Shown here piece after piece: positions 28,016-54,385 of a stretch of 64,000 bases of DNA. The position numbers and the translations under genes were made by a program. The stretch's first letter is position 1; each line of letters begins with the position of its first letter. The notes under the pieces are model-generated. The model ran no database searches. It was not told the origin of the DNA and worked only from the letters and a program-made list of their open reading frames with translations. The DNA comes from Rhynchobatus australiae (Eukaryota). The stretch covers positions 13,482,920 through 13,546,919 of the forward strand of contig JAUZTB010000071.1 in NCBI GenBank assembly GCA_034780895.1, written 5' to 3'.

Positions 28016-28489
28016 ATCCAGTGACTATGAATGAGTGGAATTCAGTGATGATTCCTTCTGTAAAAAGATTAAGAATAGAATAAAAGCCCTGAGGCTGATA
28101 CTGCAATATGGCTACCATTAGCATCTTTCTTGATTAGCATATTATGAATATTTTAATTCATAATCTATTGAAATCTCAAATTTTATATTTACAGAATTGT
28201 GCATTTGTTTATTCATTAATGGTATAGGAAAAAATAACTCTCAGCAATACCACATTATGAATTCTTGTGTTTGCTAATTTTCTCAGTCCAGCCCTTTAAC
28301 AGAAACTTTTGTAGATCCAGTTAAGAAAGGAATATGACACAGGATTGGCACTGATGGCAGTCATTTCACTTATAGACATTTATATCATTAATTTTTTTTT
28401 GTACTTGATTGTTGTTGGAATGGTTTAGTAAAGTTTTGTTAACAGCTCTCTTTTATAATAATTAAATGTGCACATAACATCTCAAGACT

Positions 28490-28632
28490 GACATAAAAAA
28501 TTCTGCAGATGCTGGAATCTGGAGATGGAGCAATACACAAAAAGTGCGAGAGGAACTCAGCAGGTCAGGCAGCATTCGTGGAGGGAAAAAAAACAGTTGG
28601 TGTTTCTGGTCAAGACCCTTGATCAGGACCCT
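28490..28632 (-). mobile_element. Penelope-like short insertion with decayed hammerhead and TSD-like flanks
   Basis: Minus strand starts ggtcCTGATCAagggtcttgaccaGAAAcacc; flanks are tctcaagact (28480-28489) and tctcaaggct (28633-28642). Confidence 0.75.
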
Positions 28633-31359
28633 TCTCAAGGCTCTGCATTCTTCTATAAATACTGATGTTGCTCATTAAAGAAAACTTGACTTAAAAATGC
28701 CCAGAATTGGACAGCATTTCTTTATCATTGCACTCCTAACAGTCATGGAAATCTCTTGTTTTTTAAATGTATAAAATACAAACTCATCCTATATGAAATA
28801 TTTTACTGAGCTAATTAAATTAAATTTAGTTCCTCTTGCATGCTTACTGACGCAGAAGAGCAGGGTGTTTAAAGGGTTAATTGAAATTGGATCTATATTG
28901 AAGATTTTTTTTAGTTTGTAAACAACCAATGGAAATGTATTTACTGCAAAATTATTTTATTTTACCTGCCACTGTGTCAGAATTAATTCATTGTCCCAAG
29001 CATACGTATGTTTTTTCAGCTTCNNNNNNNNNNNNNNNNNNNNNNNNNNNNNNNNNNNNNNNNNNNNNNNNNNNNNNNNNNNNNNNNNNNNNNNNNNNNN
29101 NNNNNNNNNNNNNNNNNNNNNNNTCAGCTTCTCAAACAAGATTTCCTTTATTTATGTATAGTTGCCACAAATATATAGCTTAGAACTCATTAGTTTTTAA
29201 GTTTTTTGACGTGGTCCCAAGTTCTCATTCCACTGAAACTACTACAAATAGCTAATGTTGTGTTTATTGGACTAAGGTATTCTGTCTGAAGTTTTAAAAT
29301 TTATTTAAGACAAAGGCAACTTTGATCTTTGATGCAGTCATAAAATATTCTGATGTTATCTGTCTTTAAAAAGCAAATTATTGAATTTTTAAAGAATCAG
29401 TTCCTCTAAAATGTAGATTTGAAACTATAACATTTGTGTATCCAATATGTATATTTTAGCAGCTGCTGTGAAATTAATCATTGTTCTATTCCCCCCTGCA
29501 CCTGAAATCCTGGCCAATTGCCCAATGCCCTCTCACGTTAGTGTACAGACTTTGGTTATAGTGAAATTAAGTAAATGAATGATTTATGATGCCACTCTGA
29601 TTGCTCTTGCCTGATGTGTGTTCAGGCACTGCACAAACTTAGCTTTGTGTTATCACTCTCATCTTTAGCCGGATTAGTTCTAGATACCACAGTTAGGTAT
29701 TGCAATGTTTTTGCTGGATTTAGGGTTCTGTACTGAGAAACCCTGGTTTCCANNNNNNNNNNNNNNNNNNNNNNNNNNNNNNNNNNNNNNNNNNNNNNNN
29801 NNNNNNNNNNNNNNNNNNNNNNNNNNNNNNNNNNNNNNNNNNNNNNNNNNNNNNNNNNNNNNNNNNNNNNNNNNNNNNNNNNNNNNNNNNNNNNNNNNNN
29901 NNNNNNNNNNNNNNNNNNNNNNNNNNNNNNNNNNNNNNNNNNNNNNNNNNNNNNNNNNNNNNNNNNNNNNNNNNNNNNNNNNNNNNNNNNNNNNNNNNNN
30001 NNNNNNNNNNNNNNNNNNNNNNNNNNNNNNNNNNNNNNNNNNNNNNNNNNNNNNNNNNNNNNNNNNNNNNNCAAAAGCAGTCTGTTGAAACATTAACCTG
30101 GAACATTAACTATGTTCCCCTCTCCAGAGATATGGCCTGATCTGCTGACAGTTTCCAGTATTTTCTGTTTTTATCACGTATTACGAGTTTTCTCTATCCC
30201 TCCTGCAATGGAGCTGTTCAAATCATTTTCCTAAATTCAGCAATTCACCATCCATTGGATTTTTGGATTACGTGACTAGATCTAAAATCTCCTTGGATTT
30301 TGCAATCCAGCTGTACAGACAGCTCAGACAGATATATCTAAAGTTACCTAAAGATAGACAACACATGTCAAAGATGGATTTTTCTCTCTCCAGTGCTGTC
30401 TATTTAGTTGCCCAACCCCAATCTCCTATTGAATGAATCTCATAAAATATGATGTATTTTTGTACCAGAATCACTCATATGTCAGTTTACTCAGCAAAGT
30501 TGCTGTCAGAGTTAAATCCATAATAGATTTGTTTTGAGAAGATTTCCAATATCCAGTAATTCTGTGTAAATAGCAAGTTATCTAGAACTGGCCTTTTTGC
30601 TGCAGTCTTCCCTGGAGATTGTCAAAAATGACCTTGACAAAGAATAATGCAGCCTGTTTTTCACTTCCAAGTGAAAATAAATGCTTCATTTAATGGTTTC
30701 AAGGAAAGTACTCTTCATCGTGTAAGGTAATATATTGGGGGAAAAAATCGCCTTTTCTAATTTCATGAGTTTGTTAGAAAACTAGATTTTTTGGTTATCT
30801 GTTATTTGAAATTGCAAAGTTATTTTAATCCGTGGGTATTAATAGGAGAGATGGAATGTAGATTGATGGTGGGGAGGGGGCTTGATATTAAGACCAAAGG
30901 CGTCCACTCAACCGAAGCAGGATGTGACATTTTCCGAGCCACCTAGCANNNNNNNNNNNNNNNNNNNNNNNNNNNNNNNNNNNNNNNNNNNNNNNNNNNN
31001 NNNNNNNNNNNNNNNNNNNNNNNNNNNNNNNNNNNNNNNNNNNNNNNNGCATCATGTTAGCTCTGATAACATTATCTTCATCTTTTCAATATCGGCTTCA
31101 GCGTCTTTGCATTTATTTGGAGTTAGCTTTGGATCAGTGGTAGCATTCTGAGCAGCTTGATAGGCTATTTACATCATAGTACATTCATCTCCCATTCCTT
31201 AGTCTATTTGCATCCAATTCCACTGAATGCCAATTTATGAATTATATGAACTAGAGGATACCAAGGAATGATAAGGGCTCTGAACCACAGAACTGGACTC
31301 ATCATGACAAGAGAGCAGCAGTAAATGCTGTCATCTAAAGTTAATGGCTTTTCTTTTAG

Positions 31360-31525
31360 TTCTTAGGCCCTTCAGCCCACAAAAGTCCATGCCGACTATC
31401 AACCACCCATTTACACTAATCCTATGCTATCTTATTTGATTCTCCCCACATTCCTATCCACTCTCCCAGGTTCTACCACTCACCCACACAAAACTTGCGT
31501 AGCCTAATACACCTACTAACCCTCT
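31360..31525 (-). mobile_element. V-SINE (HE1-like) 3' part
   Basis: aggcccttcagcccac...gtccatgccgac...attctccccacattcc...ttctaccactcacc. Confidence 0.55.
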
Positions 31526-31899
31526 CTTTAAAGGAATGAAGGTCCTATTCACCTTCAGAACATAAAATAATTCAAACTGGATCAATATTTTGTGACAGGT
31601 CTTTGCACTCCTTAATCAATAATATTATTTTCCACATTGATTGCTTCAGTCTATCCAAAATAAGAGAAAACTAGCCTCTCTGTCGGAGGAAACATAAACT
31701 AACCATTACCAGTAGATCTGATGTGCTATTGCTAGCTGGTAGACCGTTGTGGTTTTTTGATTATAATCCAGTTTATATTTTGAAGGCTGTGGTCCGTATT
31801 CCAAATAGGCAGGTTGTCAAAATGGACTCTTTTGTGACTACAAAATGGAAGTAAAAAAGCATTACTGGTAGAATTTTCTGAATGATTTTCTTCTCTTTT

Positions 31900-32140
31900 T
31901 CTGAGGGTGGTGAATCTCTGGAATTGTCTACCCTAGAGGGCTGTGGAGGCTAGATCAGTGGGGATTTATTTAAAGAGGAAATAAATAAAGATTTGAAAGA
32001 TCAGGGAATAGAGAGCTATGGGGAGTNNNNNNNNNNNNNNNNNNNNNNNNNNNNNNNNNNNNNCCATGAACATCTGAATGACTGGACGGTCATGAAGGCC
32101 GTGAATGACCTACACCTGCTCCAATTTTCTTATGTTCTCT
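31900..32140 (+). mobile_element. CR1 3' end
   Basis: gagggtggtgaatctctggaattgtctaccctagagggctgtggaggct...cctacacctgctccaattttcttatgttct. Confidence 0.8.
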
Positions 32141-33712
32141 GGAGGGATAGACCAGATGCCTCAGGGTCAGAAAAATGTCTCCCATAAATGCCTGGCTTTA
32201 GTTTGCAATTTTTGCACAAGTCCTAAGCATGCTGGTTGTGATTTACTGCCTTACACAAAGTGACATCTGGAGTGTGATGGCCATCATGAAAATCTTCCGA
32301 TGACTGGATTGATGATGTCTTTGATTGTAGTTTGACAACCTTCAGCAATCATTTACATTGGCCAGAATCTAGTGGTGAAATGGTAGTGAAAACAAAAATG
32401 GATTTGATATAAATGGGAAACCTTTGTTAATAAACAGCTGCCCAACTAGATGTAAAAAGATGATTAGTTACAGCATCTTGTCCAAACTCTATATGCCTCA
32501 TTGTGAATTGTACAAAGCACAGTATTGGAAAGGTCTAGATGCAATATTGCAATAACCACCTCAAAAATTTGGTTGCACCTGAGGCCTCTATCACACCATT
32601 GGATAATGCACATTTTCACATTTGAATGGAGACACAAGAGACTGCAGGTGCTGGAATCTAGAGCAAAAAACAAGCAACCACTGATCCTACTCTGCCAGTG
32701 CTGGGTTTGTGGTGGGACCGGGAATGGAGGTGGGGGTGGCAAATTGGTTGGAGACTTGTAGTGTTCTTGCTGAAATGTTCTGACACTCTTCTGTGCGTGG
32801 GTAGTTGGGGTGGGGAGGGACTAGGAATACTGCAGATGTGAGGGTTAGAGGGAGGTGGGAATGAAGGTCCAGGAGATCAGCTTGGTTTGGGAGGAAAAAA
32901 AATTGGGGCTATTGCAGATCGCAGATCGGGGGCTTGTTGGAGACCAGACGGGGGTGGGGGGGGGTGGTGATGGGATATGCAATAGAATTTAATGCAGGGA
33001 AGGATCAAAGGTTTGGTCCACTTACTTGGCAGTCATTCCCATCCAGTTTTGTGCTGCAAGACCATGGTATCCCAGGGAAATCCAGTGATGGTACTTTGCA
33101 GGAAACGTGCTCAGGTTTCCCTGCACTGCTCCAAAAAGAATGATGTCAACCCATGCACTCCTGATGGAGAAATCTTGTCACCACTGGAAGGGTGACTCAC
33201 TGGTATGTGGCTGGTCGAATTCTTCAAGTGTAAAAAGCAACCTGGACTCATTCGATGTCGTGCTTCACTCATGGACAGACATTAGTTTTCCCATTAGATG
33301 ACATGTCAACAAAGGCCATCTTAGTGTTTACCAAATGCCTGTTAATGTGGGTGGCAAACTTGGAAAGTGTCATCTTGGCTGGAGATTGCTGATGGCAGAT
33401 TTTAACTACCCTTGGCATGTAAGAGGCAATATGCAGTGTTCATTTGAATTTTATTCTGGTTTTCCTAAGCTCCAAAACATTACGGTTTCCAGCAGCAATT
33501 ATTAAAATGTCTTGGCTACTGGATCGTTGGCCGTGGTGACCATGTTTAATTTTGTTTGCCTGGAATTGGATTACGTAATGCCATGTTTTCCTACACAAGA
33601 GGTTCAGTTTCATTGAAAGGTCAGGTATAAAGAAAAGATTGACATCTTTTTCTGTGTCCTTCCTGCTTCAGACATGCTGGAAATTGGAGGAGGGGAGGAG
33701 GCTGGATATAAG

Positions 33713-33860
33713 AGAGATAAGATATCTTTATTAACCACATGTACATTGAAACATACATCTTTTGCGTAGAGTGTCCTGGAGGCAGCCCGCAAGTGTCGCC
33801 ACACTTCCCGGGGTGCTCTGGTTTTCTCCCACATTCCAAAAGATGTATGGGTGAGGAAGT
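33713..33860. mobile_element. Composite of a Rex1-type tail (minus strand) abutting a V-SINE core fragment (plus strand)
   Basis: gataagatatctttatta...catgtacattgaaac followed by V-domain-like ccggggtgctctggttttctcccacattccaaaagatgt. Confidence 0.5.
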
Positions 33861-34565
33861 TGTGGGCATACTATGTTACAGTAACATCCAGAGTTATACA
33901 AGGCATTCTCCAACATCACTTCGTGATCTTGGATTTTTAGACCACTGATGTCCAGCTTTGTGCAGGGTTTGATCTACTCCCTGGTTCTCTCTCCTGAACC
34001 ACATCCCTTCAACTTCCTGGGCCACGTTCCCCCCTCCCACAATGACTTCCCCACCTTAGACCAGTATTTAATGTCCTTGGTCTGCTTCATAGTGGGTTTC
34101 AAGTGCCTCTGAATCCAAGGTGTTTGTCCTCTGAGCAGAACATTGGCATGTCTTCATTAACATACCTTCTTTAACATGCCTTTACTGGAGCTGTTATGAT
34201 GAATGGTAGAAAAAAGAAAACCAATGATTTGATAAAGTGGATTTTATTTCACTTTCTTATTTTTCAAATTCTCTTCCTCATTATAAACAATTGCATCTTA
34301 ATAGCCAATATAATCATGTAATCCAATGTGCCATTCACTTGTTGTTTTACAGGTGTACTCACCCAAGCATAAAGCTTTCTGACAAATGATATGCTCAGCA
34401 GTTTTCTGTTTTGCTGATGTCTACATCCTGCTGTGGAAAATTTCTGTTTAGTGCATTTGTTTTATTAAGAAACCATATATCGCTTAGTCATGACAGGGCC
34501 TGCATAAAATAACTCTCCTTCTACATCCCATTTTGACATCTTTGCTTTTTTTTTGTCCCCTCCAG

Positions 34566-34675
34566 GATCAGCATATTATGACAACGTTCGCCCGCTGGCC
34601 TATCCTGACTCGGATGCAGTGCTAATCTGTTTTGACATCAGTCGTCCGGAGACTCTAGACAGTGTTTTAAAGAAG
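34566..34675 (+). CDS. RND2: RND2 (Rho family GTPase 2) internal coding exon, equivalent to vertebrate exon 3 (110 bp)
   Basis: Polypyrimidine tract + CAG (AG at 34564-34565) and donor AAG|gttggt at 34676. Translates (G)[46 protein letters not shown] is the RND2 form (RND3 has LSYP, RND1 has LCYS). Ser replaces the catalytic Gln (Ras Q61 position), as in all Rnd proteins. Confidence 0.96.
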
Positions 34676-37600
34676 GTTGGTGTCTGCCTCTGGTTGTTTG
34701 AAGGAAGTAGACCAGTTGAGTTGCACTTGTATTTTAAAGGAGTTTAAAGGAAAAGTATCAGCACTGCTGGAAGGCAGAAATTACCTTCTGTATATGTTTT
34801 AGCAACATTGATTTGCACAATTGGGTGGAACTTCTGTCTGTGCTATTTTTATCTAGATTTTACTCTGAGGAATATATGTTCAAACAACATTAAAGTAGTG
34901 AACCTAGATACCTAATCAAGCAAGATAACCAGTTCATTTCTACAGAGTAATCCTTAAGATATTGCTTTTGAACATCTCTTTCTAATAATTTGAAGCATTG
35001 AAAATACAAAGCTTTGGGTAAAGAGAAGCATTTAGAATTAATATTGGAATACTTCCATAAAGTCCAGCACAGAAGCAGACATGATGGATCAAATGATAAG
35101 TGAAAAGTCAGATATATTAAATGGAATGTATTTTAACTTCCAGGACACCTCTGAGTCAGACATGCTAGTGAATGGAAGTGGTCAGATATTGTTACTTACA
35201 TAATTCTGCAGCTAAAATTTAGTTTATTCTTTTAAACAAGATTTTAAAACTGGAAAAATTTCTTCTTTCCTGAGAGGATGGTTGCATGTGTGAACCTGCA
35301 AGAATAAATTTTACTGTATAATCTTGGGACCCATCAAGAATAAAGTTCAAAGGTAATGACAAATACCCTTGAACTATATTCTTGAAGCCCAAGCAGATTT
35401 TGAGGCCCAAGCTTTAACTTTTAATTAAAAGTTGTGTTGGCCTGAGAGAATGCAGCACTGTCAGAACTGCTGTCATTCAGATGAGATGATAAAATGAGAT
35501 TTTATGAAAATTAATGTTTGAATGTAATTCACAAGAGAGGACAGATAAAAATTGATAATCAGGGAAAGGAGTGAGTCAGAAAGCAAATTTCAAGCTATAA
35601 TATCTCAGTGACATGTTTTTATAGGGTCATGTTATGAACTTTTTGTAATACCTAATGATTCAAGTTGATGGTTTCCTTGGCATTCAAATGTGTCAGTCAC
35701 AGCTTTAATAAGGGTAAAAAAACTCTAAGGCTGGAAACCAGAAAATGTTGCAATCTGGCAAAAGGTCAGATCTTAAATGTTAATTTCTCCTTTTGCATCT
35801 GCGTGTTTCTGGTACTTTTTGTTTTTGCCACAGTTGTGATGGTGGTCAATAGGCATATATTTTTTTTTTACCCTCTTCTTCAGGAATCAAATCCTAAACT
35901 CAAGAAAGCTCCCCACAGGGAGGGAGCAATATTTGAAGGTGGGAAAGTTTCATGCTAGTTTAACCCTACAGAAGAGCAGCATAATCTGGCAGAAAGTTAT
36001 CTGAACTCTTGATAAAGGAATACATGTGTGATATGGGAAGTGGCAACCGGTCTTAAAGGGTGAGAAATTCATCTTTGGTCGTGTGCATCAAACATGCAAC
36101 CTGTAGCATTATCCCGTAGATTCACATCTCTGCAGTTTGGTTCTATTGTTTTCAATGGAACCAAATTTTTAGAAGCAGAGTGCAGATTGAGAACAGTATT
36201 ATATCATGTATTCACTGTGTGCATCCAAGGGCAACTTTTGACCTGAGACGTTTTCTTTAAACGTGGAAGTTATTACAGTGGCTAAATACCTTGTCATTTT
36301 GGAATAGAAAGACTTCATCCTTAAATTGTTGTTGTTTTTATATTTTAGAAGGCTTTGCTGATTCATGTTGCTGAGGAAATACCTTGCCTTAAACTGTAAA
36401 TTATGGAATTAATATCAACCCAAATTTTGCTTTTCAGTAATGCAGGCAGGAGAATCTCTGGCCTATTGATCCAGTTAATCCTGCTAACTGAATCTGTAGA
36501 AAATCCTTCTAGCCCAATCATTCCCGCTATACTGCATTTTACAATAAAAAGTGTGATACTAAGCAGCAGACAAAGAGTGTTCAGATCAATCGGTGCATGT
36601 TTCAAACATGAGTGAATATAACTCCCTTGTGACAGGCATTTTAGGATTAATAGTTTGAGTTGTGGTCGACTCCCTGACACAACTAACATCTGAGAACACT
36701 TTTTTTTCTTGCAAGATCATCTCATTATCTCATGTCTAGCATGTCTCTCTGCTTTTTATGAGATTCATTTTTCCCTGAAGATTATCCTGCTCTTTAGTGG
36801 AATTTTGATAGCATGGTAAAATCATACCATATTAGCATTTGATGCTCTTACAACCTGCATAAATCTAATGTAAAATTGCAGTAAATGACACAGCACTGAC
36901 AGCATTTGTGAGCATTCTAAAAAAATGGATATTGAAATGTGTTTAAAAAATCATATTTTAAGACCAACTTATTTTCTAATTGGAGTTGTTAGAACAGTAA
37001 GATATTGTAGCGGTAGCATTTTCCAGTCTTTCAAGAAAAGAACACTGAAGACAGATTAATTCAGATAACTGGCCAGGAAGTTCTGCTAATTTGAGTATAA
37101 CTGCATTGTACAGTTGCGATTGAACAGAGAGCAAAAGAATGAAGGTTTATCCCAAGAATTTACACGCTTTGGAAAGCAAAATCTTTGTAAGAAAAAAAAT
37201 GATTGAATTCAGCCACAAATGAGTGTGAAGTGAACTTCTAAAGGTGAAAGTAGGCACATGTGGTTATTCTACAATGCAATCTCTTGTAGATTGCACATTC
37301 CTCTACCCACTATATTTATGTATGCTGTCCAAATTGGTATATGAGCAGATGGCCAAATTTTGGAAGAATATGTTGATGATATTAGACCACAGTTACTGTA
37401 GTTGCTTCTTGTCACTAATGATGAGTTATATTATTGAGACATTTGGAAGTTATGTACTTTTAATGCTGGGGCTGTGTGTGGTGGGGGAAGACAAGGGGAT
37501 GGTGTTTGAGTGTGTGTACATGTGTAAGATCAAATCTGTCAGCTTTCCAGCAAATAAACCAAACCACCTCCCTCAGCTCGCCTTTGAAAATGGTGCCAGT

Positions 37601-38141
37601 GTTTACTAAGAATTTCCATTGTAAATGCCAGCTGCACTGATGATCAGGATGGTCTTTCTCTGAAAGGGCTTTTGCTCCTATTGAAATTGATGAGAAAAGA
37701 AATCTTGGCAGTTTTTGTGTGTACCACTGTGATGTTAGCCCTGGCATAATAAAAATGAATGCCACCATTTCTTCTTGCAGTAATTCTAATGAAATTTTTA
37801 TTTAAATTTTTCAGCAGAGTACTACTGTATTAAATTTGCTAAACTTGTCAAAATGTAAAGTTGCTCAAAAGCTTATCAACTTTTTCATTCTTGCAGTTGA
37901 AAATTTACTGCATATGCATTATGGAGAATGTATTCTGGTAGGTGGCATATCCAGGACACACATCAACCCTGATCTCATACTTGAGATCTGTCAGGATGTC
38001 TAACTGAGCTAGTTAGACATCCTGACAGAGATAGCAATAAAATGCCAATAATCCACTATCTGACTATTCAGAAATCCCATCTGGCTCACTGGATGTTGCT
38101 TCCCATGTTTCCTTTCCACTTGCCAGAGCCCCAGTTCACTT

Positions 38142-38230
38142 ATATAAATACTAGAAATCCTCAGCAGGCCAGGCTGCATCTGTGGGAAGGGAAACAGAGC
38201 TAATATTTTAGGTTGAAGACCCTTTGTCAG
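38142..38230 (-). mobile_element. Penelope-like short insertion with decayed hammerhead and TSD-like flanks
   Basis: ctcagcaggccaggctgcatctgtggg...ggttgaagaccctttgtcag; flanks are cagttcactt (38132-38141) and cagttccctt (38228-38237). Confidence 0.7.
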
Positions 38231-39959
38231 TTCCCTTGCTCCCTTTCCACACACACAGACCCCAGTTTCTGCACTCCTTTTCATTGGTTCATTGGAAAAT
38301 TTATTGTAATACTGTGTAACATCTAAAAAAAATTGAAGGTGTGTTGGGATATTCATAAAAACAACATACAATAGTGCAGAAAATCTGCTAGTTCAGCATT
38401 GCAAATTCCCAAACGTGCCTGAATATCGGAGTTTCACTTTACTGTTAGTGTTATACTATTCAGTACCTAAAGTTTTTCATGTATTGAAGAAGGGGATGGG
38501 GGTGTAGTGGGATGATGGGGGGGAAAATTAGCTGGGTTTCCTGATCTTGCTAGCTGTCCAGGAACCCCAAATATAAACTGTCAGAAGTAGATGGCGTTTC
38601 ACCCCAGACCCCACCAATGTTGAGCAAATCGCTGGTGTTCTCTTTCATTGATTGAATTAAAATTGTAGCCTGTGGATGACCTATTGAAGGGCAACAGGCA
38701 TGCAAATCTGTAGCATAGCAAGGGGCTATCTCTTAAAGATGGGAGGGAGATGGATAAACTTAACTGAAGACAATTGATGCCAGTTGCAAATAACATACAA
38801 TCTAATGAATTTCTGCTGTGTGATTAAAATGGAGTTTTGGAGGGACTAGAGAGAAGCAAACTATGGAGAATCACCTTACTGGCCAACACTTAAAGAAAGA
38901 ATTGAACTCTGTATGAACTTGGGATGCGCTAAATGCATTGCGTTATCACTGGTGTAATATAGGTTCTTTGCAATTTAGCTCTGTGCTAGATTGTTTCAGT
39001 TCCACTGTTTGAATTTTTCAGCTTTTAAAACTGAGAAAAGTTGGTCTTCTATTGATCCAGCCCTACTGGTCTCCTACATTGGTTTTGACTAGTTAAAACA
39101 GTCAGAGTGGAATTTTTAAATCTACCCCCTTACCCTCCACCTCTGGTATCCCCATGGGGTTCTGTTTCTTGCCAGGATATCCAATCGCTTTTGTGCAGAA
39201 TGAGGAGTGTAGGTACTGTGATGCTCAAGGCATTACAATCATGTGAAACATGCTGGATGGGGCACAGGGCAATTTCCTGCCTGTCATTTCTTGTGTGATT
39301 TCAGACCCATTGTGTCTGGAAATGTAGAAACCAGTATTGTGAACTTGAAATTCCCAGGTGGGGTGGGCAGTGCTTGCATCTCAAGTGAGTTTATAAGCTT
39401 TTTATTTAAGTTTTGCTGGTAATGGAACTGGGTGCCTCTATCCTGTGCAGATGTTGTTTGGAGATGCAGGTAGTCTTAGCTGGTGGGAATGATTCCTGGT
39501 GAAGGTGCTATCAATTCAAGTTTTCCAAGTATCAGTTTCTTCTACAGCAGCTGCTTCAGTCAAAAGTTCCTTTACCATGTCAGTAATACACTATGCTAAG
39601 ATTCCTGAATCCCTCCATCACTACCATCATTGAAGTGGACAATCCAAATAACATAGCAAATAATGAGTAGGACCACATCGCCATCAAAACACATGACATA
39701 GACCCAGCAAGTTCTCCTCAAATGCACCTCCAATAGTGAAACGAAGGCCCAGAAAATTCCAGTCCCATATTTTTATATTTCAGTCCAAGAGTATTATCCG
39801 TGCTTGTACGTTTGCTAAACGTGTTCAGTAAATGTTGGTCAGCTCATGCAATTGTGTTACTCATGCACTGAGAAAGGACCAGCTTCCTCCAAGACCACCT
39901 ATTTCACCCTCCTTGACACTTGGCCCTTTTCCAGTTCTGCCTTATTCCTTGTCATCTTC

Positions 39960-40522
39960 TGAATCCCTCATCTGCCTTCAGATTAGATTAATCCAATGAT
40001 TACCTGGTGAGCCTCTGTTTTCCTTTATAAACAAATTGTCGTCAAAAGCTCTGCCTCTATCCTAATTCACATCATGCCCTGTTCAAAAATCATCCCTTTA
40101 CTTTCTGCCTGCCACTGTCTCTTGGCCAGAAATGTCTTCATTTTAAAATTCTCATTTCTGTTTTTAAATCCCTCATCACTATCTTTCCTCTATCTTTGTA
40201 ACCTCCTCCAAATCTACAACCCTCTGAGATCTCTATACTTGCATCTGCAGTATTTTGAGCATTCCTGATATTATTTGTTCTGCTATCAGCGAACATGCTT
40301 TCAGTGGCCATGTTCTGTAATTCCTACATTTAATCTCTTTGTCTTGCTACCTTGCTTTTCTCCTCATGCCACCCCTTAAAACCTAACCCTTTGATTAAGT
40401 TTTTGGTTGTCTCATAATTGTTTATATCTGGGTCACTGTCAAAGTTTTGTTTCCTAATACTTTTGTGAAGCACTTTGGGGTGGTTTGCTGTAATAGGACA
40501 TTGTGTAAATGTAAGTTGTTGT
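39960..40522 (+). mobile_element. L2-like LINE 3' end
   Basis: ttttaaaattctca...tttttaaatccctc...tatctttgtaacctcctcca...tgtgaagcactttgggg...taaatgtaagttgttgt tail. Confidence 0.7.
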
Positions 40523-42164
40523 GAGTCTGGACTTCTTGGACTAACAGGAGGACTGTTGACTCAATGAAGTAAATGATCTGTCAGAGTAGGGAAGAAATAT
40601 CCAAGTTACATTAGCCGTACAGTAAGCTGCAGGCAAGTTCAGAGCTATTTNNNNNNNNNNNNNNNNNNNNTTGGGACAATATTTAATAGTTCTGCTATAT
40701 TCCAATAAACACAGAGCATCTATCACACCACAGTCAGGGCTTCCCTACACTGAATCGAAGTCTTAATGCACATTGTAAGGTTAGCACGCAGGCTGCTCCA
40801 GATTACTCCTGCAAAACTTCACCTATACTCAGTGTATTGCTGGCTGGAGACCCTTCAGTGACGTAGGCTCCACTTTAAGTCTTCAATCTCACAAAATTTT
40901 GTTTTACCATTTCTTCCAATTTTCATTGCTGATATTGAAAACCAAATGCACTGGCCAGCTGTTATAAAATGAACATTTTCTGTAGATCTTTGAGTTGTTT
41001 TGATTTTGCTTTTCACTTGTGAAGTTAACTAAACTTCTTTACTTCATGGTCACTTACAGATTATTCATTGGCTTCAGCTCATTGGATTAATTATACCCCA
41101 GAAATCAACAAGTATCCTTGACACCTCTATTCATTTGTGCCAAAAATTAACACAGAAAACATAATAAGGGTTTACTCCAAATAATATTCCTCATTCAAAG
41201 TCCAGCATATCTCTGATAGACTTTGCATATCCCTATAAGGCTCAGCAAAGGCAATACATAAACGTGGGCTTAAACTGTTGCTTAGGCAACTGTGAGCAAA
41301 GCTTAGTTCCCACCAGCAGTGCGATTCAGTGTGTGGCCAGTAAGTTGCTTTTCCCATGGCTGAGTTGGTTTGCTGGGGTCTCCCAAGATCTGGTTAGATT
41401 AGAAGCTTCGACGATGTTAAGGCAAGGGAAATAGGTGAAAAATGAGCAGTGGGCCAATGCGGAGAGGAGGATGTGGGCATTTATTTCCCCTGTTCTCTTG
41501 TTGGTAATCATGAATTACCTTTCCCTCTGTGTTAATCTCCTTTAACAGCTGGTGTTGCTTTCTGGATTTAGCCTGAGCTCTGTTTTTCTGTAATGGGGCT
41601 GCTGCTCAGCTTCCCTGTGTGATAAAACATACCAGAAACAGACAATGGTTGGATCTGTTCTCCACATCCTTTTTCTCTGATCCCTAAATCACTTTAGTTC
41701 AACCTTTTGGTTGCAAGTAAATGAGCCTTGTCTCCTCTGACATCAGTCAGCATAAAAACTGTACTGTAGACTAGACATTAACATTTGACCTGGTTTTTCA
41801 GTGCCACTATGAACAGTCCTCTTAACCATTCTGGCTTGATTCTCTGAAATTGCAAATGTGCTGCAGGCTGTTTCTCAAGCTCACTTTGACACACACTGTC
41901 TCCTGTTCCAACTCTAAACTTACTAGGCCCTCAGCACTTTGGAGTTCCTTATTTTTCTCCATGATTTGAAACCAAAGAAGTGTGTCAGCTAAAGACTGCT
42001 TCCTGATTTATCATGTCTTTTGTCTTTTGATGCCTGTAAGTCATCCTTTTACCTAGGATCTTCAGTGTCAAAGAATGACTAGCCACTTGAAGGCTTGAAG
42101 TGAATACCTAGGTAGAGGCTCATTCAACAAATGAGAGGGGTTTTAAATCCCAGTCAAGACCAAG

Positions 42165-42510
42165 ATAACAGTGGTGCAGCAGTTAGGGCTGCTGCCTCAC
42201 AGCTCCAGATACCTAGGTTCAGTCCCGAGTTCTGGCACTCTCCTTATGGAGTTTGCACTTTCTCCCTGTGACTATATGGGTTGCCTTTAGGTGCTCCAGT
42301 TTCCTCCTTCATCCTGAAGACATGCTAATAGTTTCAGTGAATTGCCCCTGGTGTAGGTGTGTGACAGGAGAATTGGGAGGACTTGATGGGTACAGTACAG
42401 AAAGTAGGTTACAGGGAAGGAAGTGCCGCAGTGGGACTGATTGAAATGCTCTGAGAGCTAGCATAGATTTCATGAGCAGAATGGCTCCTATGTTGTAAGA
42501 AAGTATAGAA
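42165..42510 (+). mobile_element. V-SINE (HE1-like), near full length
   Basis: tRNA head gtggtgcagcagttagggctgctgcctcacagctccag...ggttcagtcc, V-domain ggagtttgcac.ttctccctgtgac...ggtgctccagtttcctcc, CR1-derived tail. Confidence 0.85.
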
Positions 42511-42799
42511 ATAAGGGTGCTGCAAGTTGGTCTCAGTACCATATATTACTCAGAATTCCTCTTATTCTCCCACCTCGCCTACCACCCTTACTGGAAATGC
42601 ATGGACGTCTGGCTGTCTGATGCCCTCTGCAGTCAAATAGACTGATGATGTCATTTTATATCCAAATAATAGCTACACAAGAAGATGGTCAGTCCCAAGA
42701 AACCTGTAACCCGCTTTAGCGCAAGAGGTTTATCTGTGCAGAACAGTTGACTGGTCAAGATGATTAGCGATGTATATGAAATCCCATTGTTAAAACCTT

Positions 42800-43020
42800 G
42801 TGAGGGAGTGACTGGGTGGATGCTGAGATTTCAGAAGCAGGGGTCATAGTCTCAGGATAAGCAGAAAACTTTTGGAACTGAGATGAAAATAGAGTTCTTT
42901 GTGCAAAGGGTTGTTACTGTGGAATTCTCTACTTCCAAGTACCATGGATCCTCAACCACTGGTTATATTCATGGCTGACATGAATGGATTTCCAGACAAT
43001 AAGAATATCAGAAAATACAT
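42800..43020 (+). mobile_element. Old CR1 3' fragment
   Basis: ggggtcatagtctcaggataag...actgagatga...tgtggaattctctac. Confidence 0.6.
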
Positions 43021-43844
43021 AGATTTACTTTCCCAGGACAAATGAAGATCCTTTATGGACATTCGAATTCTGATCTCTCACAGGCCTTCACTGGCAGGCA
43101 TTCCGAAGCTTTACATCATTTACTTATAACCAGTAGATATCATAATAATTAGTGTTGATGGAATTGTGAGCTTTAATCATGTGGGATTCTGGCCATTATA
43201 TGAAAGCGGTAAATTAATGACCGAGATAACAGCCTGGCAACAGTTACAGAGACGAGCAATCTGTCGGACACTGAGCTGGGAAAGAACGTTGGTATAAATT
43301 GCACCTGTTGAACACAAAAGGCAAAACATTCTGAATCTGATGTTTAAATGTGGAAGGTTAATTAAAATGACTTCAGTGNNNNNNNNNNNNNNNNNNNNNN
43401 NNNNNNNNNNNNNNNNNNNNNNNNNNNNNNCAATTGATATATTTTACAACCATTTTTACTGTTCTGTTACAAGTCTGTTCCACAAAGGCAGTCTGCACCC
43501 AGCCAGCCTGTGGATGCCATAGAAAAAGTCAGGAATTCAATAGTGGTGGTCCAGGATCACATATAGTGGGGTTGGTTTGTCACTGATGTATGTTTGACCT
43601 CTTCTGCACACCCCTCATTTTCTTTTACTTCCAGATACCTTGGGATTCAAACAGATTCCTGGAGATTTTCACTGTATTGTTGGATTGGCTTGATCACAAT
43701 TTGCTTATATTCATTGAGTTTAGAAATAGGAAGAGGTTGAGCTTATTTCATGAACAAGATCATCAAATGGATGACTGATTTAAAATGGATAGTTTTAAGA
43801 TAGATGCTGAGAAACTCTACCCTATATCTTCAAAGGGTTAAGGA

Positions 43845-44227
43845 TTATAAACTCAGGGTAAGGGGTCAGACATTAGGACTGAGATGAAAAAATGTGAGTG
43901 AGTACAAAGGGTCCTAAAACTTTGATATAAAAACAAAAAAGCTGGTGACACAAAGGGGCAGGCAGCATTGGTAGAGAGAAAAGCAGAATTAACGTTTTGG
44001 GTCAATAACCCATCATCAGAACTGTAAATCTTTGGCATTTTCTATCAGAAGGAACTGTGGATACTCATATTCAGTATACTCAAGGCTGAGATTGGTAGGT
44101 TCAAGGAAATCAGAGGATATGAGGATCAGGTGGCAAACTGGACCTGATCATCCACGATCTTACTGAATGGTGAAGCAGACTCGCAGTGTCTTTTGGCTTT
44201 TCTTGATCATGTTCTTAACTGCTTATT
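43845..44227 (+). mobile_element. Old CR1 3' fragment, split by the insertion at 43925-44024
   Basis: taggactgagatga...caaaggg | aaatctttggcattttcta...tcaaggctgagattggtag...tgaatggtgaagcagactcg. Confidence 0.7.
43925..44024 (-). mobile_element. 100-bp Penelope-like insertion with near-intact minimal hammerhead and TSD-like flanks
   Basis: Minus strand reads cagtt CTGATGA t ggg ttattga ccc AAAA cg tt aatt; flanks are taaaactttg (43915-43924) and taaatctttg (44025-44034). Confidence 0.75.
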
Positions 44228-44379
44228 NNNNNNNNNNNNNNNNNNNNNNNNNNNNNNNNNNNNNNNNNNNNNNNNNNNNNNNNNNNNNNNNNNNNNNNNN
44301 NNNNNNNNNNNNNNNNNNNNNNNNNNNGTCTTTTGGCTGTTCTTGATCATGTTCTTAAATGCTTATGTGTGGGTGGTAC

Positions 44380-44600
44380 TTTGGGATTGAGGGTGACTTG
44401 CTTCCTCTCGAGTTCTGAGGTGATTGATGAGGCAAATCTGGGACTTGCAGGTTCTGCCGCCTGTGGAGTTGGAAGTCTTTGACCAGGCAGGTGGTGAGCA
44501 GTTTGTGAGGTGGTGGACTCTTTATGCCAAGTTTCTGTGTGTTCCTGACGCATGAACTCTGGGTTCTCCATTCCATCCTGGATGCTCCTCCTTGCCATCT
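44380..44600 (-). mobile_element. RTE-clade LINE 3' fragment
   Basis: Minus-strand peptides RRSIQDG and GRTCKSQICLINHLRT resemble the RTE ORF C-terminal zinc-knuckle region; tail ggaagcaagtcaccctcaatccc. Confidence 0.7.
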
Positions 44601-46224
44601 GTTCTTACCAATGTTAGTAATGATAGCAAAGTGACTGGCAAGAGTTAATACATGTTCCAGATGAGCTTAGTGATATTGGTCTCAGCCTTTGTTGTTCATT
44701 TTGATCCTCTCTCTCCTCCCACTCTACTTTATACTTCTTGCCAGCTCGGCTGGGAACAATCGGCGAACCATAGCAGGAGTATCTGACTGACAGGCTGGAC
44801 TTTGAATCAAACTCCATAAATCTGAGCCTGTTGCTGATTGGTTTAATTAATGTTTGGCAATTTTTGTTGAGCCTCGGTTGCAATTATCAGGAAAATATTT
44901 AGATTTCTAATATTTCATTTGTGGTTTTGAACACAAGTCAGCAGTTATGTTCCTGTAAGTTGGAATTGGTCGAAGCTGTGTAAACTGAACTTTTAGTCAG
45001 CGCAAGGTGGCCGTCCTTAATCGTCTGTTCATCTGTGTGCGGGAAAATGCATCAAGGCAGTGTGCAATGAACTTCAGATTCAACAATGGTTCAGTGAAGT
45101 GACAGCCTCCGAGAATGTTTCTGAAGCCCAAGGTATTTGGGAGTAAAGGAAAATGATGAGGAGTGTGTGGAAGAGGTCAGGCACACAGCGATAACAAATC
45201 AACCCCGCTATACATGATCCGTGACCCATCATTGGCAAATTCCTGACTCAAATGCCCCTCTCTACGGGNNNNNNNNNNNNNNNNNNNNNNNNNCAACTTC
45301 CTGAACTGTCAACACTTATGGGAACCAACAGCAGGAAAACCAAGGGCTTAGATCATTATACAGGTCACAGTTCACATGGCAGGGTGTCCTTTGGGGCCAC
45401 ACCATGCAATCTACATTTAGTGGTATGAGAAAGGAGAGCTGCAGAAAATGGTAGGGACATGTTCATTACCAGTGAGCGAGTTGATTTACTTTCATCCTTT
45501 AACAGGATAAAACCAAAGCAAATTATGTTAAATAACATTATCTAATAACTGATAAAGCAACAAAGACGTTGTCCCTTATTAATTTTATCAGAGTGAGGGT
45601 AGGATTCTTTTAATAACAGAAGGAATGCTCTCCTGTTTTGTATGTGTCTATTCTACTTTCAAAACACATGCTTTGTAGGAAACATATTTATAACACTATT
45701 AGATTATAAAGACACAAAGCTCTTTCAGTTAAAAGGGGAGGGCTTGAGGGCACACGTGTGGATGATTAAACAGCGCACTTGCACTGATACCAGTGCCATC
45801 CTGTTGTTTCCAGTTTGACCTGCTCTTCTGGGTAAAGAGCATTTGTTGGAAAGTAATGGGGCTGCCATTTTAAATATGAAAATTGGATCTTCGTGATGAC
45901 CGTAACACTCAGAGTAAGGATATGAATGGGAAGCAAATTTGAGCTCTTGCCTGACCCATTGACACCCGTGGTTTCCACGTCCGAAGTTTCTCTCCCTTAC
46001 GTGAAGCCCACCCCATTTCATCCCTCCACTTTGCTGAGTGCCAGAGACCACTTCTTTGATGCCTCACCAGTCACACAAACCTCAATGTTGCCCCAAGCAG
46101 GTGTTGGGGTGGGGTGGCAAAGGGTTAAAATCCCTGCCTCACACTGGGTAGGGCCACTCTGCGTGCTGTTGGCCTCCTTCTGCAGTGTCTGTTTTACTGT
46201 TGTATGGTATGTAGCAACATGCCT

Positions 46225-47250: not shown

Positions 47251-47354
47251 TACATGTCATATATAAATAAAATGCCTTTAGCTGCAATCCTTCAGAACTT
47301 TATTATCCTGTCATTTTCAACAAATGATTACTTTAGAATAAAGTTTTTTTTTAA

Positions 47355-47521
47355 ACAATCAACAATCTGCTGGAGGAGCTCAGTGGCTTGAGCTGCATCA
47401 GGACTTCGACCTGCAACATCGACAATTCCTTTCCTCCCACAGATGCTGCTCGTACCTCTGAGTTCCTCCAGCAGACTGTTTGTTGCTCCAGACTCCAGCA
47501 TCTGTAGTCTCTTGTGTCTCT
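47355..47521. mobile_element. Penelope-like terminal-repeat inverted pair
   Basis: aacaatctgctggaggagctcag ... ctgagttcctccagcagactgtt, ending ccagcatctgtagtctcttgtgtctc. Confidence 0.7.
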
Positions 47522-48124: not shown

Positions 48125-48130
48125 GTACGT

Positions 48131-48440
48131 ACATATTATGATAGAAGAGGAGGCTATTTGGCCCATTGATTCCATGCTGGCTCTCAGCAGAGCAAACCTA
48201 TCAGTCCCATATTTCCCTGTAACTTATTGCCTCTCACTTGCCCATCATCTCTCCTTAGATTCTTTTGTTGCTTACCTACAGTCATCAGCACATCTTTGGG
48301 GTGTGGGTGGAATCTGTAGTATGGGCAAAAGTGCAATCATAGGGAGAATGTAGAAACTCCACACAGATAGCATCCTATTCTGAATTGAGCCCAGGACTCT
48401 GTAGCTGAGAGGCAGCAGCACAAACTGCAGTTCCACGCTA
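48131..48440 (-). mobile_element. V-SINE (HE1-like), directly after the exon 4 donor
   Basis: agggagaatgtagaaactccacacagatagca...aattgagcccagga...gctgagaggcagcagcac is the reverse of the head and V-domain seen at 42165-42510. Confidence 0.8.
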
Positions 48441-50568: not shown

Positions 50569-50772
50569 GGCAGTACAGTGGCTCGGCAAATAGGAGCAAC
50601 GGCCTATGTGGAGTGTTCATCTAAAGCTTCTGAGAACAGTGTCCGTGATGTATTTCATGTTACAACCCTGGCTTCTGTAAATAAGATGCAAAAAAATCTG
50701 AAACGCAGTAATTCCAAGCGGGGGTTAAAGAGGGTATCACAAATGCCTGCAAGGACAGACTTACTGGATGAG
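50569..50772 (+). CDS. RND2: RND2 last coding exon, 5' part (interrupted by the N gap at 50773-50782; CAAX and stop not visible)
   Basis: Acceptor ccctcccctttgtag|GGC. Translates [68 protein letters not shown], with the G5 motif [14 protein letters not shown] and a polybasic tail typical of Rnd proteins. Confidence 0.94.
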
Positions 50773-52334
50773 NNNNNNNNNNAGGAGCAACAGGATTGTT
50801 GCCAAGTCCAAGGTCGGTACCCAAGGCTTTTCCTGGAGCCTCGGCCTCAAAACTGGCGATTTCTGAATCCAGAGAGCTGTTGCTTATTTATGAGGCTTGC
50901 AGATTGACTGTTGCTGTGTTGGCTTCTTGTGGAAAGGAACTAATGAAGAGGAAGATTAACCAAGTGTTTGAATGTTTGTGAAGCTGTGTTGCTAAGGGAG
51001 ATGTGGGCTGTTTGTATTGAGAACTGAATTTCTACAGGGACTGTAGGCAAGATTGATGGCAGTGATAGTTTTTGTGTTGTGAAGTAAAAATGTATGACAG
51101 TCACTTTGGATATTGCCTTTTAAAACAAACTCTATATAGGACTCTAACAAATGCACACCAAATATAATATTCCCATTTTTTCATTACCTTCAGAATTTTA
51201 GCATTACATCAGTGTTTGCACTAAACTTTCATAGACTCTGATAGGGAATGTTGTACACACTTGGAACTCTTATGGATTAGGAGACATTGCATTCCTCATC
51301 CATTATAAAGAAGTTACATAAAGAACTAAAATTCCCTCTTGTCAAATTGTGCCTTCATCACCTGGTATTGGAGGATTTGCTGCTGATGCTGTTAACACAG
51401 CTACCCAGAGCTACAGAGAAATAACGCAGTGCTGGGGTTTCTACTGTTTCCTAATGTGAAGCTGAAAAGCTCTCTTATGGAAAATTAAAGTACTTAATAG
51501 GAATTCATCCTTGGTTGAATGTGCCGAAAGGATTCTGTAGTATCATCTGCGCATATGAGTTATTTCTGAAATTCAGTTCCATTGACTTAAAAGGAACTGA
51601 ATGTTGGATACTGACTCCAAAATACACACATTACATTGCCTTTTACCACATCAGTTGTTTGGTACATACAACAGAGGATGAATTTCAGCTCCATGTAAAA
51701 AAATTTTAATGTGTGTAAATTAACACTCTTTCCAAACGGAAGGAGACCAGGGCAAGTTTTCTGTGATTGCGTGTCTCACCAAAATCATTACTGGTTCAGT
51801 CAGACAACGGCTAAGGGTCAATCTTCACCTTTCACCTTGTCCTTTCTCAAAATATTCTGTTATATTCCTTACCACAGTTCAAATAGAATGAGTTTAAGTG
51901 TCCATTGATGCGTTTGCCCTTTCTACAATTCTTACAGAGACTCTCTGATACTTTGAAGCAATTAGTTGAATTCCTCTCACCATGTAGCATTTGTGAATGG
52001 CCTTTTTGAATACAGTTCTGGAAGTGTCCAATTCATCATTTGTCAGAAATGGTTAATGAACAGTTCCTAGTTAGATTCACTACATTTTTTATAACTCGCC
52101 TTAAGGTGCTTCTGTACTTTAACAACAACTGAAGGAAAAATCAAAGTTGACCTTATAGGTAATCTAAGCTTCCTGTGACAGTCAATGCTAGGTTTGTTCC
52201 ACTGGGGTGAAGTTCTGTGATCATTTTATGATGTACTTGAGCTGAGTATTGAACCACTTTGTCATTCTCCTAGGGGGCATGTAGAGAGGCTCAAATGGTT
52301 GTATCCTCTGCTGCTGTAAGTGGTTCAGCATAAA

Positions 52335-52845
52335 GGCGACAAAGTGCTGGAGATACTCAGCAGTTTGGGTACCTTCTGTGGAGTGAAAAATGCAGGGAAG
52401 GGGCAAGGGAGGAAGGTTCAAAAGAGAAGGCATGTGATAAAGTAGACAGCAAAAGTGAGATTAATGGTACAAAGTAAAAGGTGATATCGGGATGTAAAAC
52501 ACACAATGTAGTTCTAAAGGAAGTGTAGATGGAAATAGATGAATTGTATGTTTCTTTTCCCACACTTTCATGCTCACCCCCTTCCCTTCCCTCTCAGAAA
52601 CATAATAGGTTCCTTTGTCTTTCCATCCCATTGGCTTTTACATTCAGTGAATCATCCCCCACCATTCCTGCCACTCCAGTTTAGTAACATTCTCCCTTTC
52701 TTCTACCTATTGCTCAACTTTCTTTCTTCTCTTGCTTTCTCATTTTTTCTCTTGCTTTCTCATTCTCTGGATGCTGTCTGATCTGCAGAAGGTTCCCAGA
52801 ACTTCCTTCCTTTAATTTCAGGTTTCCAGCTTCTGTGGTACTTTG
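52335..52845. mobile_element. Decayed Penelope-like element: inverted terminal repeats plus an ORF remnant
   Basis: Left end gtgctggagatactcagcag; right end gatgctgtctgatctgc...ttcaggtttccagc. 52609-52680 translates VPLSFHPIGFYIQ*IIPHHSCHSS, resembling the RVPLVLTYHP...IQxII linker between the RT and GIY-YIG domains of vertebrate Penelope ORFs. Confidence 0.55.
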
Positions 52846-53055
52846 TAAGAGTTCTGACATTGGACTGAAATAGACAGCATTCCTTCAGTTTATCCCACAT
52901 TGCATTAATATTTTCCATTTTACAAGAAACTTATTATCAGTTACATGAACTTTATCATAAACCAGAATAGCATTGACCAAGGAATTGTTGCAATGTAATC
53001 GCTGGCCCTGGTTATGAGAATGTGACTTGACACAAATTCATATTCATGCATCTTC

Positions 53056-53061
53056 AATAAA
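53056..53061 (+). terminator. Candidate polyadenylation signal AATAAA for RND2
   Basis: First AATAAA I noticed downstream of the last coding exon, followed by T/GT-rich sequence; an ATTAAA also occurs near 51484. No transcript evidence. Confidence 0.25.
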
Positions 53062-53944
53062 ACAACAATTGAGAATTTCTAGCATTTTCCGTCTTTGTAA
53101 CAAGTAACTGGAGTTATGAATCCTTTCATCATACTAGATGGTGCTATCTTGGACTGGGAAATGGATCCATAAGCAATTATGACCCTTGAATGCACTACCA
53201 TAAAACTAAGTCTTGGCCTGCGAACCAAGATAATGACTGCTGGTGGGTTAACTGGATATGAGAGGCTTCACAATTGCTTCTGGTTCCCACTTTCATCCAA
53301 AATTAACACTGTTGTTCTTTCCAATCCTGCTGCAAAAGAAGAAAAAGGAGGAAATACAAATGGCACCCAACCCTACTTACATGCAAGTCTACCTTTAATT
53401 CACATGACATTCAAAAGCCACTCCCANNNNNNNNNNNNNNNNNNNNNNNNNNNNNNTCATTGTTCTTTCCATGCCTGGAAGTCCCCTGTAGCACAATCCT
53501 GATTTCTCATGACACATGACAGCTCGTCAACACATACATTCCATTGTAATCACTCTTCATGAGTTTACGAAACAATCACCTGTTAGCACTTGCGTTGTAT
53601 GAGTAGACCTGCCCTGCTTTCCCACAGAATTATGCTGTTAATTGGAGTGTATTGTAAATTTAGAAAAGCTATTAAGACTGCAAGCCTTTGCAATAAGTAC
53701 AATTTGCAGGTGGGAATAAGTGTGCGTTATTATACATCTGTGCAATTTGAGTCAAACAAAGGCCATTTTAACCAGAGCAGAATTTTGGAAATGCTGCTCC
53801 CACAGTTGGACAATATGAATGGAGTTTTGCCTCTGGAGCAAGACTCGGGGTCATGGAAGAGCCAACTGAAAATCATAAGCACATTCATGCAGAACGAATT
53901 TAAGTTTCTACTATAGATAGGGACAGGGAATATTTAACCTCAAA

Positions 53945-54083
53945 CAAGAGAGACTGCAGATGCAGGAAATCTGGAGCAACGCACACAGTCCTGATGAAGG
54001 GTCTTGGCCTGAAATGCTGACCGTTCATTTCCCTCCAATAGATGCTGCCTGACCTGCTGAGTTCCTCTAGCATTTCGTGTGCG
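53945..54083 (+). mobile_element. Penelope-like short insertion with 5' inversion, hammerhead motif and perfect 10-bp TSD
   Basis: taacctcaaa at 53935-53944 and 54084-54093; inverted segment 53945-53985, then cagtc CTGATGA a ggg tcttgg cct GAAA tg ct gaccg. Confidence 0.85.
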
Positions 54084-54282
54084 TAACCTCAAATATGTCA
54101 CGGGGCCCAAACACTCAATTGCAGCTCCCATCCAGTATGACAAAATATGTTCATTAAACTTGAGCGCTTTAAAAATCATTTTCATAAATGACAAAAATCA
54201 CTCATCTTGTCCTAAGTTGTGACTTACTGATGAATGTTACCTTGACTTTGTATAATGCTGCTCTGTCAACACATGCTCTTAA

Positions 54283-54385
54283 TTCTTAGGCGGTCCCTCG
54301 AGATTGAGGATGACTTGCTTCCACTATTGTTCAGGATTGACTAATAAGACCAGATTGGGACCCACAGATTCTGTCAACATTTCAT
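54283..54385 (-). mobile_element. RTE-clade LINE extreme 3' end
   Basis: ttcttaggcggtccctcgagattgaggatgacttgcttccact; minus-strand peptide DRICGSQSGLIS; same family as 44380-44600. Confidence 0.65.

Follow-up and report, generated by a model that had tools for sequence, protein, structure and literature searches.

Short hammerhead-bearing copies of a Penelope-like element in Rhynchobatus australiae share a 5' boundary that is likely the start of the element's mRNA

A 64,000-nucleotide stretch of the Rhynchobatus australiae genome (assembly GCA_034780895.1, contig JAUZTB010000071.1, forward-strand positions 13,482,920 to 13,546,919), referred to here as the window, contains four short inserts that are independent insertions of the hammerhead-bearing end of a Penelope-like element (PLE), each flanked by a target-site duplication (TSD). 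In copies sampled from this genome the 5' ends of such short insertions pile up about 30 bases upstream of the site at which the hammerhead ribozyme is predicted to cut, and this boundary stands out as a hotspot against a background of ordinary truncation. From the sequence around it, the shared boundary is likely to be the start of the element's own messenger RNA (mRNA), reached by a reverse transcriptase (RT) primed internally.

Results

Four TSD-flanked inserts in the window

Positions in the element are numbered from the C of the CUGA-type hammerhead core (position 0), which lies at 28626, 38230 and 44019 on the minus strand in inserts 1, 2 and 3, and at 53991 on the plus strand in insert 4. 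The original prediction had placed each insert between paired 10-mers, and all four pairs were found at the coordinates it gave, with 9, 9, 9 and 10 of 10 bases matching and with 143, 86, 100 and 139 nt of DNA between them. When 4000 random pairs of window flanks were searched for a match of at least 9/10 within ±8 nt of both ends, 0.9% reached this level; four matched pairs among the 17 insertions of the window then have a P of about 1.4e-5 and are therefore not chance.

Insert 1 (28490-28629, minus strand) runs from -3 to about +127, includes the optional 3' tail described below, and is 88% identical to subfamily A with a decayed core. Its TSD copies lie at 28480-28489 on the 3' side of the element and 28633-28642 on the 5' side (9/10), three unmatched nucleotides separating the latter from the element. 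Insert 2 (38142-38230, minus strand), a tail-less copy with a decayed core, extends from 0 to about +84 and is closest to subfamily D (84%). The TSD copy on its 3' side, at 38132-38141, matches 38228-38237 on the 5' side at 9/10, and as the right 10-mer takes in the initial 3 nt of the core, this boundary reflects microhomology. Insert 3 (43925-44024, minus strand; subfamily D, 75%) is also tail-less and spans -5, the first base of stem I, which adjoins the TSD, to about +94; its TSD copies are at 43915-43924 (3' side) and 44025-44034 (5' side; 9/10). Insert 4 lies between perfect 10-mers at 53935-53944 and 54084-54093 and consists of an inverted arm (53945-53987, minus strand), in which a tail of about 40 nt, from about +85 to +126, has its 3' end outward, and a tail-less main arm (53986-54083, plus strand; subfamily A, 91%) from -5 to about +90, in which cleavage is predicted near 54018, some 30 nt into the arm. 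The nearest of the four consensus sequences tried was thus A for inserts 1 and 4 and D for inserts 2 and 3. As had also been claimed, the 5' ends sit close to stem I or the CUGA core, at -3, 0, -5 and -5 for inserts 1 to 4, the last of these being the inversion junction.

A 5'-end hotspot upstream of the predicted cleavage site

Two further samples of the family were drawn. In 120 fixed-coordinate 10-kb loci (992,573 non-N bases) there were 223 PLE-end insertions (225 per Mb), and reversed controls gave no matches; extrapolation puts the genome total at an estimated 4x10^5 or so PLE-end footprints. Young copies were collected with queries of 71-85 nt wholly 3' of the hammerhead, which leaves their 5' ends unselected. 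From 150 young loci the 30 of subfamily D, for which no reliable upstream consensus could be built and which stand outside the end-point statistics, and four query self-hits were set aside, giving 116; removal of 24 with a gap at the boundary left 92 loci with 127 arm ends.

The modal 5' end was -4. Expressed per 100 nt at risk, ends occurred at 1.08 (+31 to +40), 1.33 (+25 to +30), 0.97 (+15 to +24) and 1.19 (+5 to +14), rose to 6.18 at -9 to +4, fell to 0.24 at -23 to -10 and were about 1.3 further upstream. Of 77 arms that reached +4, 47 ended within -9 to +4, a 5.6-fold rate (p=4e-16), as did 18/43 when the 57 non-inverted copies were taken alone (ratio 4.6, p=4e-6). The 5' endpoints are thus non-uniform, as the recurrence of one boundary in the window had led the original prediction to propose. 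By standard hammerhead numbering, cleavage would fall between +27 and +28, and the interval +25 to +30 held no excess of ends (8/104 arms). An alignment-free check on the random copies placed the end of the left TSD copy at -17 to -3 in 9/66 cases, against 2.1 expected (p=3e-4 for this bin, one of nine, the remaining eight holding 0-4). It could be argued that the hotspot is an alignment artefact of low-complexity upstream sequence. This explanation was rejected because the TSD-position test needs no upstream alignment; in addition, upstream-continuing copies of subfamily A align at about 75-90%.

Short TSDs of variable length

Gap-free flanks and ends in range were available for 70 of the 116 young copies, and 23 of these had a TSD score of at least 8, compared with 1.0% in swapped-flank controls. 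Among the random loci, a flanking repeat scoring at least 9 was present in 17/180 scorable insertions, compared with 0.7% when flanks were swapped. Flanking repeats are thus commoner in real flanks than in controls, and the proposal that the units integrated individually at staggered nicks is backed by these duplications. The fixed stagger of about 10 nt that went with this proposal does not hold: family-wide, TSDs are 8-16 bp in length with a median of 11, and only 2/23 are exactly 10 bp (the score threshold hides any below 8). Short, variable TSDs are expected of an endonuclease-positive (EN+) PLE and were found here. Rotifer PLEs have TSDs of 8-10 bp, supported by empty-site proof (PMC3846280).

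The short units are the end of a GIY-YIG Penelope-like element

Upstream of the hammerhead end, longer copies continue into a C/T-rich 3' untranslated region (UTR) and, before it, an open reading frame (ORF) for which a script-derived consensus of the contiguous upstream extension displays the motifs of an RT, a linker of the form CX4CxxC and a GIY-YIG domain; the linker is also seen in single loci such as L165 and L354. Pfam matches to five unaltered locus stretches (RVT_1 on two, E=6e-4; GIY-YIG on one, E=4e-4) were all below gathering scores. The first RT-like frame (L016) had no Pfam match, a PDB sequence search with an RT stretch returned none, and no intact full-length copy was seen among the loci examined. 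As copies run contiguously into an ORF with RT and GIY-YIG regions, the autonomous GIY-YIG Penelope partner sought by the original prediction therefore exists in this genome, and the short units are its end. Nine longer homologues of the endonuclease stretch included seven named from rays or skates and five carrying PF26215. Three ray or skate gene models labelled kinase-domain, mucin or receptor-transporting (P0003, P0004 and P0007) hold the endonuclease region of this element, probably through mis-annotation or exonisation.

A CX2-5CxxC linker between RT and endonuclease marks the Neptune and Nematis clades (PMC8557442), and occurrence in vertebrates is reported for Neptune, not Nematis, in a bioRxiv preprint (10.64898/2026.07.22.740005). 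We classify the element as a putative Neptune-type EN+ PLE, Neptune being preferred because it is the clade reported in vertebrates. The family divides into at least five recognizable subfamilies.

When the tail of one locus and the sequence downstream of it were used as a query, many copies proved to extend past +129. Nineteen such loci were fetched, plus an extension of L353, and the continuation past +129 is common to all of them. In L361/L353 it passes into the N-terminal portion of a long copy that bears RT, so that the hammerhead-tail segment is also the 5' leader of the element; judged by eye, sequence resembling the ORF seems to start about 40 nt beyond the tail. The order of the element is thus hammerhead, tail, ORF (RT, Cys-linker, GIY-YIG), 3' UTR, hammerhead, tail, with one and the same segment flanking the ORF on its 5' and 3' sides in the manner of a pseudo-long terminal repeat (pLTR). 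Compact units in which a hammerhead-tail is followed by 100-250 nt of ORF-start sequence and a second hammerhead-tail were also observed (L362-L380); these could release retrozyme-like RNA and are candidates for the birth of retrozymes without long terminal repeats (non-LTR retrozymes).

Two classes of 3' end and recurrent inversion

At random loci the 3' ends fall into two classes, at about +85 to +100 and +120 to +128. Inverted pairs among the 223 insertions had their 3' ends outward in 34 cases and inward in two, and of the 35 inverted young copies with a tail in the first arm, 22 had a second arm that stopped at +85 to +97. The element therefore displays an optional tail of 30-40 bp and an adjacent inverted, truncated copy, both of which are PLE traits. 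Frangieh et al. (PMC11167929) trace the tail signature to two internal RT start sites, with both DNA strands nicked and extended, and report that shortening the 5' end of the RNA shortens the product and that hammerhead cleavage is dispensable. By analogy, insert 4 would be a two-primer product of this kind. A unique event as the origin of its inversion was considered and rejected; the arrangement recurs genome-wide with differing junctions.

State of the hammerhead motif

The consensus sequences of subfamilies A and C have the layout of a minimal type I hammerhead, comprising core, stems I and II and a palindromic stem III. The core is intact in 18/88 anchored copies and in 0/4 window inserts, each of which has at least one change in a conserved position, and the hammerheads of the four inserts are to all appearances fossils. 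The first base pair of stem I covaries (C-G 62, T-A 6, C-A 15, T-G 3, other 2; n=88) with p=0.006, a value computed on related copies that are not independent, so that past selection on the motif is probable. When the four motifs and a reference copy were folded as single strands, z was below -2.5 in 2/5, a measure that is uninformative for a minimal hammerhead that acts as a dimer. In the subfamily E consensus (L211-L240) one base of the hammerhead core is non-canonical and stem I is weak; the subfamily was nonetheless amplified widely, which suggests that hammerhead cleavage was dispensable for that lineage.

Other features of the window

Further PLE-end insertions comprise an inverted pair with 3' ends outward (21301-21453), a short plus-strand copy with tail that starts at about -2 (25020-25133), a tail-less plus-strand copy that starts at about 0 (30082-30172), an inverted pair flanked by a 9-nt T-rich, low-complexity direct repeat (47352-47519), and an inverted pair in which both arms start near -10 (62207-62420). 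An Rfam scan of the window detected no hammerhead, the four inserts included. It did return a weak, spurious match to a plant microRNA precursor family at 47367-47474 (E=0.015) because the inverted PLE-end pair forms a hairpin; inverted PLE-end insertions can form double-stranded RNA.

A near-perfect palindrome at 21993-22553, with arms 98-99% complementary and the left arm broken by an N gap, is centred on an inverted PLE-end pair (22219-22402) and takes in flank that is not part of the element; it arose either by fold-back duplication in recent times or as an artefact of the assembly. One repeat occurs in opposite orientations at 42171-42228 and 48379-48436, and presumably carries the tRNA-like head of a short interspersed element (SINE). 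Copies of another interspersed repeat, at 10361-10390 and 31909-31938, resemble what we take to be the 3' part of a CR1-type long interspersed element.

Discussion

The boundary shared by the short copies lies in a YCAGTY context whose A, at -4, is 89% conserved. We take YCAGTY to be an initiator-like motif. An AT-rich, TATA-like motif starts 29-31 nt upstream of this A in 86/114 copies that continue upstream. The promoter of Drosophila Penelope is inside the pLTR (PMC2377424), and a rotifer pLTR has TATA and initiator-like motifs (PMC3846280). If the boundary is indeed the start of the mRNA, transcription would initiate at the A in the 5' arm of stem I, directed by the TATA-like block that lies 30 nt upstream, within the 3' UTR that precedes it. 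The PLE protein would nick both DNA strands 8-16 nt apart and prime reverse transcription inside the RNA at about +91 or +129, an internal step that draws on published in vitro work on another PLE and is matched here by the two genomic 3' ends. Priming on the first, 5'-proximal copy of the site would allow 95-135 nt to be copied before RT runs off the end of the RNA, and priming on the downstream copy would generate ordinary long copies, randomly truncated. A single cDNA joined to the far nick would give inserts 1-3, and insert 4 would arise from cDNAs that were primed at both nicks and became joined through microhomology, the ribozyme riding along uncleaved.

The run-off lengths of about 95 and 133 nt fit inserts 2 and 3 (86 and 100 nt), insert 1 (143 nt) and the main arm of insert 4 (96 nt). 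In 8/19 loci with two hammerheads the second unit, judged by eye, starts at -5 to 0 directly after ORF-start sequence, a junction that would be expected if RT were to jump templates at the RNA end. The discrete RNA end that the original prediction had proposed thus likely exists as the end of the element's own mRNA; the separate short RNA to which it had been attributed does not find support. Retroviral strong-stop DNA is a short cDNA that extends from an internal primer site to the 5' end of the RNA. Whether PLEs routinely integrate such cDNA, as mini-copies of two fixed lengths (about 95 and 133 bp), each with its hammerhead complete and uncleaved, we consider evenly balanced.

It should be emphasized that several observations weigh against an mRNA start at the boundary. 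The start at -4 is deduced and not mapped, and the list of TATA-like motifs was picked once the families had been inspected. The ends are scattered across about 10 nt and do not share one base, the two arms of one insertion, which enter the 5.6-fold ratio separately, are not independent, and 49/184 single-fragment random copies start at -12 to +5, most copies ending elsewhere. About three of the eight tandem junctions sit on microhomology and could be deletions. The upstream sequence fits a branch point, polypyrimidine tract and AG as well, with a branch-like A at -29 in 48/114 copies. In the test for a cap-derived G, 8/15 non-consensus bases at -5 were G (27.5% expected, p=0.03), and at least three of these eight come from the other arm. 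Finally, no empty orthologous site was seen: none of the listed joints of contigs from five sequencing runs (covering 27500-45500 and 53600-54400) skips an insert, and the sole run with long matches is near-identical to the window and has no bearing on empty sites.

Of the alternatives, a structural or nucleolytic stop fares best, although we consider it unlikely. Here the cDNA would fold back or pair by microhomology after copying the 5' arm of stem I, or an endonuclease would resolve the intermediate at that point. The two arms of stem I form a short inverted repeat, the junction shows micro-inversions (as in L311), and self-priming at palindromes has been proposed for rotifer PLEs (PMC3846280). 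Stem I, however, is just 3-5 bp and is weak in subfamily E, yet the pile-up is present in each family examined, and the TATA-like block at its fixed 30-nt spacing is left unexplained. Somewhat more doubtful is a 3' splice site at -2, such that spliced RNAs would carry another exon in place of the upstream 3' UTR. The polypyrimidine tract and CAG that precede the boundary, the branch-like A and the 5' UTR intron of Drosophila Penelope (PMC2377424) are in its favour. TSDs, however, adjoin the boundary with 0-8 extra nt, and no upstream exon was copied in those cases, which argues for a free RNA end over a splice site; in addition, many ends are at 0 to +3 or include -5/-4.

We are more sceptical still of a distinct short, non-autonomous RNA, whether SINE-like or the monomer of a retrozyme, for which short copies would be the templates and which the PLE protein would mobilize in trans. 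The very high copy number, the presence in this genome of deleted two-hammerhead units and the proposal that animal retrozymes derive from pLTRs (bioRxiv 10.64898/2026.07.22.740005) would accord with such an RNA. In a tree built on 60 of 97 short copies and 60 of 102 long ones (95 columns, low resolution), short copies were slightly clustered, with 33 label changes against a shuffled mean of 40.4, a value as low as 33 arising in 7-8 of 500 shuffles. Short and long copies nevertheless interleave, at least eight of the changes being forced by well-supported branches, and they share each subfamily, so that no separate SINE-like lineage is apparent. Short copies have also lost the upstream TATA-like block, and the segment that they carry leads the full-length ORF. 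Nor do the traits of retrozymes fit: a self-cleaved monomer would begin at +28 and not -4, no excess of ends marks +25 to +30, the four inserts are not tandem, and same-strand fragment pairs within 40 nt make up 2/223 random insertions. Least credible, and largely refuted, is arrest of RT at the folded ribozyme or an RNA 5' end made by self-cleavage: the boundary does coincide with one edge of the motif and the first stem I pair covaries, but RT moving 3' to 5' would run into the 3' foot of the fold near +32, a place that has only background levels of ends (1.08 per 100 nt), as has the cut site, and the pile-up (6.18) is on the 5' side, so that neither process explains it; moreover, cleavage mutants of an anole PLE show normal insertion, and none of the RNA-seq reads stops at its cut site (PMC11167929).

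The footprints bear on the mode of PLE transposition and on the function of the hammerhead. The integrated templates are bounded upstream of the ribozyme and not at its cut, and they provide in vivo support for internal initiation of RT on uncleaved RNA. Run-off at the mRNA start makes precise predictions, namely an exact start site and two product lengths. If PLEs do routinely integrate strong-stop cDNA, this would account for the great numbers of solo minimal hammerheads that vertebrate genomes carry, with no need of a SINE or retrozyme RNA, PLE transcription starts could be mapped from DNA alone, and the same cDNA would supply the template jump that rebuilds pLTR tandems.

The element itself, its TSDs, inversions and tail, and its minimal hammerheads are known PLE traits. 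The regularity of the 5' ends is apparently unreported and bears on PLE mechanism; a literature search, in which subscription papers and Repbase reports were largely outside the scope, turned up no description of either a 5' hotspot or a strong-stop product for PLEs. The present element shares with EN+ PLEs of the Neptune and Nematis clades (PMC8557442, PMC3846280) an RT with a C-terminal GIY-YIG domain and CX2-5CxxC linker, heavy 5' truncation, partial tandems, an inverted 5'-truncated copy and the optional 30-40 bp tail. The published TSDs of 8-10 bp (PMC3846280) are close to those seen here, which reach 16 bp. In contrast, the consulted parts of these reports describe variable 5' truncation, with no sharp hotspot or run-off account of copies of 95-135 bp. 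Poseidon PAc of the anole (PMC11167929) likewise has two internal RT starts about one tail apart near the 5' end of the element, both strands are nicked and extended, and hammerhead cleavage is unneeded. It belongs, however, to another clade, and its ORF starts inside the hammerhead and not, as it appears to do here, about 40 nt after the tail; the main text of that study contains no analysis of genomic 5' ends or TSDs. The core with its palindromic, loop-less stem III, and the many dispersed copies of which few are in full elements, are as described for the minimal type I hammerheads of PLEs (PMC4209133), a work that catalogues motifs, whereas the present data offer a route to solo copies that hold the whole motif.

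Non-LTR retrozymes (bioRxiv 10.64898/2026.07.22.740005; see also PMC7229834) are similarly pLTR-derived, non-coding, equipped with a type I hammerhead, PLE-dependent and present as dispersed monomers, but are defined as tandem repeats from which units are freed by self-cleavage. Each of the four inserts of the window, unlike retrozymes, stands singly between TSDs, with its boundary 30 nt upstream of where cleavage would fall. L1 twin priming produces an inverted 5' part together with TSDs. In contrast with both L1 twin priming and retroviral strong-stop DNA, the two arms here often copy overlapping sequence from two fixed starts, and, unlike its retroviral counterpart, the short cDNA is target-primed and integrated.

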